From contig JBBSJT010000007.1 of assembly GCA_038257035.1 (NCBI GenBank), positions 1 through 38,159 on the forward strand: a stretch of 38,159 nucleotides of DNA. Reading direction: 5' to 3'. Position numbers: made by a program. The stretch is from Chlamydiia bacterium. GTDB taxonomy: Bacteria; Chlamydiota; Chlamydiia; Chlamydiales; Parachlamydiaceae. Position 1 is the first letter of the stretch, and every line of letters begins with the position of its first letter. Shown here one piece after another: positions 1 to 3,000 of this stretch.

Positions 1-3000
1 AGTCTTATGGAAATTGAAGATTTTCTTGAATACATTGCTTCAGAAAAAGGTCTTTCAAAAAACACAATCGAAGCTTATAGCCTGGATATCAATGCTTTAA
101 ATGACTATTTAAAGCTTGATTCATTTAATGATGTTAAGGATTCGCACATCATTGGCTTTTTATCAGATTTAAAATCAAAAAAGTATAAAAGCTCTACCAT
201 TTGTCGTAAATTCATTGCTTGCAAAGTCTTCTTTAAATTTTTAAAAAGAGAAGGTGTAATTAGTGAGGATCCTTGCTTTTATCTTGAAACTCCAAAATCG
301 TGGCAGCTCCTTCCTGACGTGTTAAGCGAAGATGAAATAAAGAAGATTTTTCTGCAATGCGATACTACCACTGCAAATGGTGCTCGAGATTTAAGTATTT
401 TAGAGTTGCTTTATGCAAGTGGCCTCAGGGTATCGGAGGCTTGTAATTTAAGTCTTTATGATGTTGATGATGAATTTGTAAAGGTGATGGGCAAGGGGAG
501 AAAAGAAAGGGTTGTTCCAATTGGTAAAAAAGCAATTGATGCAATTGATTATTACCTTGTTCATTTTAGGGATGCCCAAAAAAACAGCCGTCACGAAAAG
601 CTTTTTGTCACTCAATCCGGCACACCTTTAAGTCGTATGACTATTTTCAACATCGTTAAAAAATATGCCAAAATGGCAGGAATCACAAAAAATGTTTCCC
701 CGCACACTTTTAGGCATTCTTTTGCTACTCATTTATTAGACCATGGAGCGGATTTACGCATTATCCAAGAGATGCTAGGTCATGCCTCCATCGGAACAAC
801 CGATCGCTATACGCACATAAGTCGTAATAAACTCCAGGAATCCTTCAACACTTTCCACCCCCACCCATAGCCCCCTTATTTTTACCACTGAGAGCACAGA
901 GAAGGAGTGATACCGTTGTGGATGCTTTTTTTACCGCGAAGACCGCGAAGAAAGACGCGAAGAAGCGCGCTAACGCGCGACAAGAAGTAAGAAGAAGCAA
1001 GAAGAAGCGCAGCTTATGCACGGTGAAGAAGAATGTAAAAAAAATTCTGTTAAAAGAAAGTTCTTTAGATTAGTATGTAAGCCAAATTATGGAGTTTATA
1101 TGGAATTATTAGTAGCTGATAAATTGGATCAGGATACAGAGACGCTAATTAAAGTTATCATTGGGGCTGCTATAGATGTGCATCGCGAGCTTGGACCTGG
1201 TTATTTTGAAAAAGTCTACGAGCAAGCTATGGCATTAGAGCTAAGATCACGAGGTTTATCATTTGCAATGCAAGTTCCTGTGGCCGTTTGCTATAAAGGT
1301 GAAAAAATTCATGGTCAGATTTTGGATATGGTTGTCGAAGGAAAGGTTATTTTGGAATTAAAATCTGTGGAGATGCTTTTACAAGTTCATGAGGCTCAAA
1401 TAATTTCTTATCTTAAATCAACAGAAATACCAGTGGGATTATTAATAAATTTCAAGGAAAAGTGGGTTAAAGATGGTATCAAGCGGTTTATCCATAGCAA
1501 GAGTTAATTATCTCTCTTCATCGCGGCATAAGCCGCGCTTCTTCTTAGCTTCTTCGCGTCTTTCTTCGCGTTCTTCGCGGTAAAAAAAGGTAAAAGAATG
1601 TGTATAATAAAAAAAGACTCTTTGTTTACTTGACGGTGAATGAGGCTTGAGGGCAAAAAAAAAGCCCGGTAGTCAAAGACCACCGGGCTTTTCAAAGGAC
1701 TACTTTTTAGCTGCAGTAGTTTTCTTTGCTGAATCTTTTGTTGATTTTTTTGCTGCTTTTTTAACCATTTGGAAACTCCTGTTTTTTTGTTTGGGCAATT
1801 TTTTTTGCCTCTAATTTGACAATATGAATTTAAAATATTTAATTAAACTTATTTTTATCATTTTTTTTAATAGAGCATGAATTTTTACCAAAAAGCTGAT
1901 AAAAAAGGCACCAACTTGCAAGCGATTCATACAGCACAAAAAGGGCCAAAAAACCAATAATCCAACTATTCTGCCAAATCGCTACTGCAAATAAAAAATT
2001 AGCGATGATAAAACGAATAATTCGATCTTTGGCTCCGATATTTTTTTGCATAAATAACCACGTTTCCATATAAAGGGTTTAAATCGATGTTTTTAATTTA
2101 ATTATCCATAAGTGAATTATAGCACAAAAAAGGAAAAGGTCAAAAGATGCCTAATGAAAAGAAGAATTTTTTGTTAACAGCGGGTAGAGCCCCTTCAACT
2201 CTTGATTTAGCAAGACAGTTGAACGCTGCAGGCCATCAAGTTTTTGTTGCAGATACAACTACTTGGCATGTTTGCAGAGGGTCAAATGCAGTGAAGAAGA
2301 ATTTTGTCATTCCAAGCCCTCGTTTTCAAACAGAAAATTTTATCGAAGCACTTATAAAAATTATTCAATCAGAAAAAATCGACTATTTAATTCCAACTTT
2401 TGAAGAAGTTCTTTATATATCTTCACATTTGGATAGTTTTCCAAAAACTTGCAAAGTATTTAGCTCATCTTTTGAAACATTACTTCGTTTGCACAATAAA
2501 TGGTTTTTTTATGAGGAACAGGTGAATGCCGGCATCCCGGTTCCTGAAACATTTTTAATAGAGAAAAAGGAAGATTTAAAGCAGCTTGATCCAAATTCAA
2601 GCTATGCTGTAAAGGCAAGTTATTCAAGATCGGCACAATCTATTTATAAGGTTGAGCCAGGATCCACATTGCCGGATATTGAAATCGAGCCGCATAACGC
2701 ATGGATTGCTCAAAAGTGGCTTGAAGGAAAAAGATATTGTACTTACAGTATATGCGAAGATGGAAAGGTTTTGGCTCATGCAACATATCCTGTTCAAATT
2801 GCAATCCAAGGCCATTTTTGTTTAAACTTTGAATCTGTTGACCATCCTGCTATTTTAGAATGGGTGAAAAATTTTATTAAAATAGAAAATTTTACAGGCC
2901 AAGTGGGCTTTGATTTGTTTGAGGATGAAAATGGCGTTGTTTACGCTATAGAATGTAATCCAAGAGCTACACACGGTTTGATTTTATTTAAAAACTCCGA

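Follow-up and report, generated by a model that had tools for sequence, protein, structure and literature searches.

A GxxExxY/PDDEXK_3 nuclease gene inside a palindromic word-array cassette suggests a selfish DNA element of a little-known kind

The window (the whole 38,159-nucleotide stretch of Chlamydiia DNA that was analysed) contains at positions 925-1589 a palindromic cassette of about 0.7 kb, which carries a gene of the GxxExxY/PDDEXK_3 family in its loop and whose arms recur, mostly without any gene, throughout the genome. That the gene, its inverted word arrays and the repeats without a gene form one unit is supported by comparisons inside this genome, between phyla and between whole genomes, and suggests that we are dealing with a selfish DNA element of a little-known kind. 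The explanation favoured here, to which we give an even chance, is that the cassette is a REPIN/RAYT-like or foldback-like putative selfish element whose nuclease acts on the words.

Architecture of the cassette and its protein

The left arm (925-966) and the right arm (1548-1589) are 42 nt long each and 98% complementary, and an inner pair of 21 nt (999-1019 and 1526-1546) is 95% complementary, which bears out the claim of an earlier note on this DNA that the gene lies in the loop of a palindromic cassette with inverted word arrays. That note had described three to four 8-nt words per arm; each arm is instead composed of three 7-nt words, spaced 9 and 12 nt, behind a T-run and ACC. On the left the word CGCGAAG is found at 935, 944 and 956, and on the right its complement, CTTCGCG, is found at 1552, 1564 and 1573, followed by GGT and an A-run. 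A decayed outer part of the left arm (879-924) consists of modules with a T-run and ACC, the words CACTGAG (886) and CACAGAG (895) and then ATACCGTT. The inner left arm (967-1019) contains a small GC hairpin (CGCGC-TAA-CGCGCG), AAGAAG runs and the inner 21-nt repeat (999-1019), the complement of which constitutes the inner right arm (1526-1546) and contains a hairpin of its own (CGCGGC-ATAA-GCCGCG). A polarity relative to the gene, with sense words upstream and antisense words downstream, had also been claimed and is not borne out, because a palindrome is identical on both strands and the layout says only that, at either end, the words face inward.

The cassette is flanked on one side by a xerC/D-type (tyrosine recombinase) gene (7-870), which is conserved in relatives that lack the cassette, and on the other by a small minus-strand gene. 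A function of the arms as an intrinsic or bidirectional terminator was considered and rejected, because in either strand the stem comes after the T-run and before the A-run; a separate terminator-like hairpin is located at 1660-1692. No sigma-70-like promoter was found between 800 and 1800.

The gene (1100-1507, plus strand) codes for a protein of 135 aa. The earlier placement of the family core, of about 135 aa, at the ATG at 1100 is confirmed by the alignment of homologues of 135-138 aa from this codon and by a GGAG situated 5 nt before it; the frame of 163 aa that had been called from 1016 starts within the arm. Profile searches assign the product to PF13366 (PDDEXK_3; E 1.8e-40, 138.4 bits against a cut-off of 22) and to TIGR04256 (GxxExxY; E 2.2e-40, 137.6 bits against a cut-off of 35), and a profile search of the cassette ORF returned PF13366 as its sole match, with no DDE, HUH or Ser/Tyr recombinase domain and no PF05635. 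In an alignment of 23 sequences, G34, E37, Y40, D76, E86 and K88 are invariant or nearly so, and the catalytic D-ExK residues (D76, E86 and K88) are invariant, as had been proposed. The AF2 model (pLDDT 91.6) has a restriction-endonuclease-like alpha/beta fold and its best fold matches are all PD-(D/E)XK nucleases (VIA Z 5-8), so that a PD-(D/E)XK fold can be predicted with confidence. The best Foldseek match was Cas4 SSO0001 (E 2.3e-3), and no sequence relative was found in the PDB by profile at E <= 1, both in agreement with the earlier note, which had placed the fold nearest to Cas4-type nucleases and had reported no solved relative by sequence. The fold and the catalytic D-ExK are held in common with the small PD-(D/E)XK nucleases (type II restriction enzymes, Hjc, Cas4 and XisH), with VIA Z of 8.0 for BpuSI, 7.5 for Cas4 SSO0001, 6.4 for Hjc and 5.7 for XisH, a likeness at fold level only, given Z <= 8 and Foldseek E >= 2.3e-3. 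We know of no type II restriction enzyme, Hjc, Cas4 or XisH that is flanked by word arrays of its own.

With one query, 3625 clusters of this very large family were retrieved at E <= 1e-5, covering many bacterial phyla together with archaeal and viral records, and the close homologues lie mostly on contigs shorter than 3 kb. A phage search gave no match, and matches were found in 8 of 72,556 plasmid records, all of them predicted to be non-mobilizable. The function of PDDEXK_3/GxxExxY proteins is listed as unknown in PMC3424549, where the family phylogeny is described as containing multiple transfers and clades that mix bacteria and archaea.

Gene-less copies in this genome

A genome-wide search with the pattern TTTTACCGCGAAG gave 183 matches and 78 convergent pairs: 77 of the pairs are gene-less palindromes of 86-375 bp, and the remaining one is the gene-bearing cassette, which measures 657 bp as a convergent terminus pair. 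The arms of the cassette are therefore, as the earlier note had it, those of a genome-wide gene-less repeat, of which there are about a hundred gene-less occurrences overall. Within the window, such copies lie at 6203-6460 (core 6225-6406, directly behind a stop codon and with a DNA fold z of -13.3), 13047-13240, 17354-17617, 20369-20639, 28173-28384 and 31512-31671, and a solitary left-arm terminus without partner is found at 7754-7766. The copies at 17354-17617 and 20369-20639 belong to a 265-280-bp class with a common central module; one central module is common to 26 of the 46 loops tested. In 77 elements for which the flanks are complete, palindromy continues past the T-run for about 21 nt, and 76 of the 78 elements are intergenic, being located outside any long open frame. 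The genome holds 401 word arrays, compared with 8-12 in shuffles; it has at least five word families and two genes of the GxxExxY family. At the second of these genes, on contig C17, the left arm is degenerate and a complete gene-less palindrome follows, just as first reported. The best whole-element pairs are 82-88% identical, so no recent copying is seen, which matches the previous observation that copies within the genome are diverged and that no recent jump was caught.

Orthologous sites in a congener (G002) were empty at the three places examined (3/3), including those of the copies at 6203-6460 and 13047-13240. As judged by sequence comparison, gene and arms travel together into new neighbourhoods. 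Two homologues with 79% and 77% aa identity carry GCGAAG-type arms; the one for which both flanks are present (L169) has neighbour genes other than those of the window, and the other (L170) is without its left flank. A metagenome search for the empty site, using flank patterns from either side of the cassette, gave 0 matches. Regarding target-site duplication, no direct repeat was detected above a re-paired control, the ends (TATACC...) being themselves near-palindromic. The 65 gene matches in another genome (G029) were considered as a sign of the cassette's own mobility and this was rejected, because they are due to an IS5-like element that carries the cassette, the repeated units being whole IS5-like units plus an IS-internal insertion.

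Word arrays across genomes and phyla

The same design was analysed in 80 loci from many phyla, 75 of which were testable with full flanks. An inverted-repeat score of at least 30 was obtained in 60 of these 75 loci; among the controls it was reached by 11 of the 385 displaced window pairs, by 13 of the 75 direct comparisons and by 2 of the 75 shuffles. Of the 80 loci, 53 have clustered words on both sides of the gene, 21 have them on one side and 6 lack them, so the bracketing of GxxExxY genes by word arrays across phyla, previously reported for 46 of 73 loci, holds in this set; the reported lack of such words in distal flanks (0/73) was not reproduced, as the ±5 kb flanks are rich in gene-less arrays, including 34 short convergent pairs. 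The common grammar of the arms is AACC or CACC followed by three C-R-C-N-R-A-G words. Adjacent convergent array pairs (94 in total) hold a GxxExxY gene in 51 cases, are short and gene-less in 34 and fall outside both groups in 9; these 9 (loops of 259-2642) contained no other recurrent cargo, one of them (L113) having a second GxxExxY gene, and over 688 kb of flanks the cargo between convergent arrays was limited to chance neighbours and one more GxxExxY gene. One complete genome has seven cassettes, each with its own word variant, wedged between host genes. When word type is mapped on the protein tree, 33 changes are needed among 80 tips; shuffles need 44.4, and none of 300 goes as low. This clustering is significant, but linkage alone would produce it, so it is no proof of co-adaptation. 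In relatives of this genome, PF05635 four-helix-bundle genes are found in analogous cassettes with other words.

The two arms of an element differ from each other in 55 of 1108 word columns (5%) and in 91 of 314 spacer columns (29%; Fisher 5e-29), and sense-strand mismatches of the G.U and A.C types are equally frequent (73:73), so that the conserved feature of the arms in these alignments is the words and not the pairing. These data bear directly on the possibility that the cassette is an RNA device like the intervening sequences (IVSs) of 23S rRNA: the arms of the transcript would pair into a long stem, RNase III would cut it and the cassette RNA would be released from the host transcript, the protein having a role separate from the arms or none. 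The Coxiella IVS, as described in PMC4990558, has the same build and is excised by RNase III; the cassette RNA is predicted to fold with its arms paired (-225 kcal/mol, z -6.0), and the lack of a sigma-70-like promoter in 800-1800, the location between the xerD-type gene and the terminator-like hairpin at 1660-1692 and the excess of neighbours on the same strand, about 2:1 by a crude count (46:23 and 50:22), would all be in line with such a device. However, the absence of a G.U excess and the free divergence of the spacers indicate that pairing is not conserved, the T-run before the stem shows that the arms are not terminators, and the near-confinement of gene-less arrays to genomes that hold the gene would be left without explanation, making this device unlikely.

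This near-confinement was observed in two sets of genomes. In the first, at least 10 arrays were present in 16 of 16 genomes with the gene and in 1 of the 15 lacking it: each of the 16 that have a full-length gene holds at least 16 triple-word arrays, 11 of the 12 genomes without a gene match hold 0-1 and the other one 33, and three genomes with gene fragments only hold 0-3. In the second set, 11 of the 13 genomes that have the gene hold at least 10 arrays, as do 3 of the 38 that lack it. The exceptions are four genomes with 16-112 arrays and no detectable gene and two with the gene and 0-2 arrays. The co-occurrence is relevant to another possibility, namely that the repeats spread by other means and that the gene homes into them, with a free-standing nuclease cutting gene-less copies and repair copying the gene into their loops using the arms as homology. 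PD-(D/E)XK homing endonucleases exist, I-Ssp6803I being a precedent, and a nuclease without joining chemistry would suit homing better than transposition; besides, the gene always occupies the loop of an element with arms matching those of gene-less copies, and some genes have a complete palindrome on either side (L091, L117, L119 and the one on C17). Nevertheless, only 1 of 78 CGCGAAG-type elements has the gene, so homing would have to work with very low efficiency, arrays hardly occur where the gene is missing, suggesting that the repeats do not persist alone, and the arm grammar is conserved jointly with the gene across phyla. We therefore consider homing quite improbable.

A host function has also to be considered, in which the arrays would be REP-like chromosomal sites for DNA organisation, replication-fork handling or mRNA stability and GxxExxY would be a domesticated host factor that binds or trims them, its own gene being flanked by them for autoregulation. 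The copies are indeed old (82-88% identity), intergenic (76/78) and numerous, each genome has one or two genes, and gene and arrays co-occur. On the other hand, the arrays are patchy among congeners (108 triple-word arrays in G000, 1 in G001 and 3 in G002), several cassettes with different words coexist in one genome, genome comparison shows that pseudogenes and gene fragments are common, and multiple transfers and mixed bacterial/archaeal clades are described for the family (PMC3424549). These features fit a selfish element better, and a domesticated system seems very unlikely.

Proposed mechanism and relation to known systems

According to the preferred explanation, the cassette would be the gene-bearing member of a foldback-type selfish repeat family, whose ends are arrays of three 7-nt words (C-R-C-N-R-A-G; here CGCGAAG) pointing inward behind a T-run and an (A/C)ACC leader. 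The 135-aa PD-(D/E)XK protein would most likely bind the words as an oligomer on both arms and cut at or near them, after which host replication or repair would assist in copying the cassette to new places between genes; we infer these steps, as well as the mobility of the cassette. Gene-less miniatures would be copied in trans by the same protein, in a similar way to a single RAYT gene that serves a REPIN population. To our knowledge, no PD-(D/E)XK protein performs transposition alone, because this fold is not known to have strand-joining chemistry. Other facts that count against this explanation are that no target-site duplication stands out above controls, the 82-88% likeness of the copies, the IS5-like element of G029, the array/gene exceptions, the presence of at least five word families compared with two genes, the absence of phage matches and scarcity of plasmid matches, and the frequent flips of word type.

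MITEs with an autonomous parent are well known (Correia/NEMIS, Nezha and others), and the cassette resembles them in that the coding copy and the more numerous, short, non-coding palindromic copies have terminal inverted repeats in common, although no target-site duplication was detected above the control here and no DDE or other known transposase is encoded. Drosophila Foldback elements have long inverted ends built of short tandem repeats, a likeness of form only. REPs are short hairpins with a GTAG motif, whereas the ends of the cassette are arrays of three spaced 7-nt words. The REPIN-RAYT system, in the descriptions available (PMC3116915, PMC3337134, 10.1101/2022.05.22.493013), is similar to the cassette in having one or few genes flanked by inverted repeats that are also abundant without the gene, in the old and intergenic character of the repeat populations and in the co-occurrence of repeats and gene across genomes. 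RAYT is, however, an IS200/IS605-like HUH/Y1 transposase that cuts and rejoins single strands, whereas the cassette protein is predicted to be a PD-(D/E)XK nuclease.

The closest published design is that of the IVSs. According to PMC4990558, ORF-bearing IVSs occur in the 23S rRNA of Coxiella, Leptospira and others and are regarded as selfish, the function of the protein being unassigned, and the Coxiella IVS has terminal inverted repeats and tandem heptamers (GACAGAT x3, number variable) just before the S23p ORF. In both cases a small ORF is located in the loop of stem-forming terminal inverted repeats and is preceded by tandem heptamers, and the word CACAGAT, related to the IVS heptamer, flanks one GxxExxY gene in G031. 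They differ in that the IVS is inserted in helix 45 of 23S rRNA, helix 25 being the other site of such insertions, and encodes the four-helix-bundle S23p (PF05635), whereas the cassette has protein genes on both sides and codes for a PD-(D/E)XK protein (PF13366), and in that the IVS is known as an RNA excised by RNase III, whereas the cassette has about a hundred gene-less copies and conserves words over pairing. No LSU rRNA match was obtained anywhere in this assembly. The earlier note had spoken of an undescribed class; this stands for the GxxExxY version with genome-wide gene-less copies, of which no account was found in our literature search, and not for the overall design, already published for the Coxiella IVS.

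More tentatively, and with the balance somewhat against it, GxxExxY proteins may be the enzymes of a large, unrecognised prokaryotic foldback class outside the known transposase chemistries, with an oligomeric PD-(D/E)XK nuclease that reads three-word arrays at both ends; S23p/Avd-like four-helix-bundle genes would be a sister class with its own words, and 23S rRNA IVSs would be those members whose insertion site happened to be rRNA. Such a class would then account for part of the short-period tandem repeats that, according to the Discussion of PMC6344855, are abundant and unexplained in prokaryotic intergenic DNA. The fixed DNA grammar and the gene-less repeats give the PDDEXK_3/GxxExxY family its first testable function, the grammar predicting the putative DNA target of the protein to the base, and they connect it with the ORF-bearing IVSs of rRNA, a puzzle for 30 years. 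If the nuclease drives these elements, they would represent a mechanism of mobility or maintenance outside the known transposase classes and a natural source of small nucleases with 7-nt recognition words. From a practical point of view, these repeats break assemblies: in a source-like sequencing run the contigs end at the arms, their joints being either mediated by the repeat or derived from a relative with a likeness of about 90%.

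Architecture of the cassette and of its relatives

The cassette (window positions 925-1589) is composed of two inverted arms and a loop that holds a single gene of the GxxExxY/PDDEXK_3 family (PF13366 PDDEXK_3, 1.8e-40; TIGR04256 GxxExxY, 2.2e-40). The outer arms (925-966 and 1548-1589) form a 42-nt inverted repeat that is 98% complementary, and an inner pair of 21 nt (999-1019 and 1526-1546) is 95% complementary. Each outer arm contains three 7-nt words, CGCGAAG after a T-run and ACC on the left (935, 944 and 956) and its complement on the right (1552, 1564 and 1573); similar but weaker modules, whose words are CACTGAG and CACAGAG, lie outside the left arm (879-924). 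Because the T-run precedes the stem on either strand, the arms are not terminators. The 135-aa gene (1100-1507, plus strand) had been called from 1016, within the arm, a start that is probably wrong, since the alignment with homologues, 135-138 aa long, starts at the ATG at 1100, which has a GGAG 5 nt upstream. An xerC/D-type tyrosine recombinase gene (7-870) is the upstream neighbour. Downstream, a terminator-like 15-bp hairpin (1660-1692) separates the cassette from a small lysine-rich minus-strand ORF (about 1700-1770), and both keep their positions in the congener G002, which is devoid of the cassette; the ATP-grasp family gene that follows (2147-3322; PF02655, 6.3e-9) is kept in both congeners (G001 and G002) and is unrelated to the cassette.

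The GxxExxY motif and residues D76, E86 and K88 are invariant in an alignment of 23 sequences. The fold predicted by AlphaFold2 from this 23-row alignment (pLDDT 91.6) is a generic PD-(D/E)XK one, with a VIA Z of 8.0 for the BpuSI nuclease domain, 7.7 for 3ijm, 7.5 for Cas4 SSO0001, 6.4 for Hjc and 5.7 for XisH, and a best Foldseek E of 2.3e-3; no sequence relative was found in the PDB at E <= 1. PMC3424549 lists the function of the family as unknown and describes repeated transfer among bacterial divisions and archaea.

A profile built from 23 family members recovered 80 loci, which come from bacteria of many phyla and from a single archaeon. Of these loci, 75 had full flanks, and in 60 of them the best inverted-repeat score, computed on flanks of 250 nt, reached 30 or more; among the controls, this level was reached by 11 of 385 window pairs of equal spacing shifted by 1.2-3 kb, by 13 of 75 comparisons in direct orientation and by 2 of 75 shuffled sequences. 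Of the 80 loci, 53 have clustered words at both sides of the gene, 21 have them at a single side and 6 lack them. The arms follow a common grammar in which AACC (40 cases) or CACC (22) leads and usually three words follow, 1-2 nt apart, the commonest being CACAGAG, CGCAGAG, CACGGAG, CGCAAAG and CGCCAAG. The 688 kb covering these loci contain 287 arrays (9 in a shuffle), and 51 of the 94 adjacent convergent array pairs surround a GxxExxY gene, with loops of 364-608 nt in 48 (1315, 1318 and 4551 nt in the other three). Another 34 pairs enclose no gene and have loops of 13-198 nt, and the remaining nine enclose chance neighbours, except one that holds a second GxxExxY gene. Among 24 genes from 31 related Chlamydiae genomes, clustered words were found on both sides of nine, on one side of five and on neither side of ten, the score being at least 30 in 15 of 22 scorable loci; in some of these loci the words are different ones (for example AACGATA or CACAAAAG). 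The arrangement proposed in the earlier note, inverted word arrays around a GxxExxY gene, is real, strongly non-random and general. Its description as sense words upstream and antisense words downstream stands in that the words point inward; it has no bearing on gene orientation, since the two strands of a palindrome read the same and the description is true for either gene direction. Inward-pointing words are not universal for gene-less elements, since a cyanobacterium (G032) has many gene-less CACCAAG/CACTAAG pairs of the opposite layout (complement words, with sense words about 22 nt later), and four such short pairs occur among the 80 loci.

Conservation of the words and the RNA-level alternative

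In 53 cassettes, the two arms differ at 55 of 1108 word columns (5.0%) and at 91 of 314 spacer columns (29%; Fisher 5e-29), a contrast somewhat biased by a word definition that takes either arm, though by less than its factor of six; 29 of the 55 within-word differences fall at the degenerate fourth position. Sense-strand mismatches are equally divided between G.U (73), which would pair in RNA, and A.C (73), which would not, and the split per locus is 24 against 24. From these rates, it is the words that are conserved and not pairing as such, which suggests specific recognition of the sequence, in the simplest case by a protein, rather than selection for a stem in the sense transcript. The arms are able to pair (they are paired in the RNA fold of the cassette, z -6.0), and the gene-less element at 6200-6465, as DNA, has a fold z of -13.3.

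Among published designs, the ORF-bearing intervening sequence (IVS) of 23S rRNA is the closest. That of Coxiella, as described in PMC4990558, has 428 nt, a terminal stem of 28 bp and, ahead of the S23p ORF, GACAGAT heptamers in tandem (three, a number that varies); it is cut out by RNase III, and the possibility that it is a mobile element has been discussed. The rRNA location and the S23p ORF that define an IVS are both absent from the cassette, and an RNA-level, IVS-like device, with which the pairing capacity would agree and the equal mismatch classes would not, is considered rather unlikely. Six of seven S23p-family (four-helix-bundle, 23S_rRNA_IVP, PF05635) genes in relatives (L143, L144, L147, L148, L151 and L152; genomes G004, G006, G009, G017 and G025) are flanked, by eye, by inverted arrays built from different tandem words (GGGCAC/GTGCCC hexamers, ATTCAGA, GAGTCC) and of either polarity, so at least two gene families seem to have word-armed cassettes of their own. 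The only PF05635 gene of the genome under study (C166:200-1250, outside the window) has inverted AATTCCAA-type words at its flanks, and this 3-kb contig may belong to another organism.

Gene-less copies and co-occurrence with the gene

The assembly under study (2.37 Mb, 210 contigs, 36% GC) contains 183 occurrences of the terminus TTTTACCGCGAAG, resolved into 78 convergent pairs and 27 solitary termini; 77 pairs are gene-less (86-375 bp) and one is the gene-bearing cassette (657 bp). The window contains six of the gene-less pairs and a single unpaired arm. Long open frames are avoided (76 of 78 elements are not spanned by one), 26 of 46 loops tested share one central module, and palindromy extends about 21 nt past the T-run. 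Arrays of two or more C-R-C-N-R-A-G words number 401 (8 and 12 in two shuffles) and include families of CGCGAAG (201), CGCAAAG (71), CGCAGAG (44), CACAGAG (31) and CACCGAG (23). Only two GxxExxY genes were found; the second, on contig C17, is 46% identical to the cassette gene and is flanked by CGCAAAG words; its left arm is degenerate, and a complete palindrome without a gene lies behind this copy. The CGCAGAG, CACAGAG and CACCGAG families have no gene with matching arms in this assembly (95.8% complete).

In the set of 31 related genomes, a full-length gene is present in 16, each of which holds 16-142 triple-word arrays; three with gene fragments only hold 0-3, and of the 12 without a match 11 hold 0-1 and one (G016, 79% complete) holds 33; the genome under study has 108 against 1 and 3 in congeners G001 and G002. 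Among 51 genomes around a Thioalkalivibrio, at least 10 arrays occur in 11 of 13 with the gene (exceptions 2 and 0) and in 3 of 38 without it (16, 61 and 112). The link between gene and arrays is strong in these two unrelated lineages and not absolute in either direction, and kin are not independent. A lenient PF13366 search (E <= 1) found no credible PDDEXK_3 gene in the four array-rich, gene-less genomes (G082, G051, G049 and G016; 16-112 triple-word arrays), whose arrays may be orphaned repeat populations or be served by something else.

There is good support for a link between the gene, the arms and the repeats that lack a gene. One gene, many gene-less copies and co-occurrence across genomes follow the logic of REPIN/RAYT, repeat populations served by one RAYT gene; RAYT is an HUH transposase, which the cassette lacks. 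We hold with roughly even confidence that the cassette is a selfish element, REPIN/RAYT-like or foldback-like, that relies on the nuclease; word binding, cutting and copying would be the mechanism. A homing gene lodged in a pre-existing repeat is regarded as distinctly unlikely. No description of GxxExxY cassettes was found in a full-text literature search. Tandem heptamers are presented in PMC6344855 as the most abundant periodic repeat of prokaryotic intergenic DNA, with no known function; a link is only possible, since the period of the present arrays is 8-9 nt.

Signs of movement

The congener G002, whose genes are about 71% identical, has no cassette in the interval from xerD to the downstream genes, and its sites corresponding to the elements at 6225 and 13047 are also empty, with conserved sequence on both sides. 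Two metagenomic homologues (L169 and L170; 79% and 77% protein identity) have GCGAAG-type arms; L169, with both flanks present, has neighbours other than the xerC/D-type gene and DNA beyond the arms that is unrelated to the window, and the contig of L170 ends at the left side, so that only its right flank was compared. A domesticated host system is deemed very improbable. No recent copy was found in the genome under study (best whole-element identity 82-88%), nor target duplication above a re-paired control in the element flanks, nor polymorphism of the cassette within a population.

The complete Planctomycete genome G031 contains 193 triple-word arrays and seven cassettes (L171-L177), each wedged among host genes and each with its own word variant, including CACAGAT (L176) and ACAGGAT types. 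The L176 word is close to the Coxiella IVS heptamer; L174, with ACAGGAT-type words, is AT-richer and has an in-frame TAG. The 65 GxxExxY matches of G029 were rejected as evidence of the cassette's own movement, their source being an IS5-like element that carries the cassette. There (L043-L062), full gene copies lie behind the transposase ORF, about 35 near-identical copies, located within IS sequence, have both arms but no more of the gene between them than its last 50 codons, and the number of words varies among copies, with two extra words in L045.
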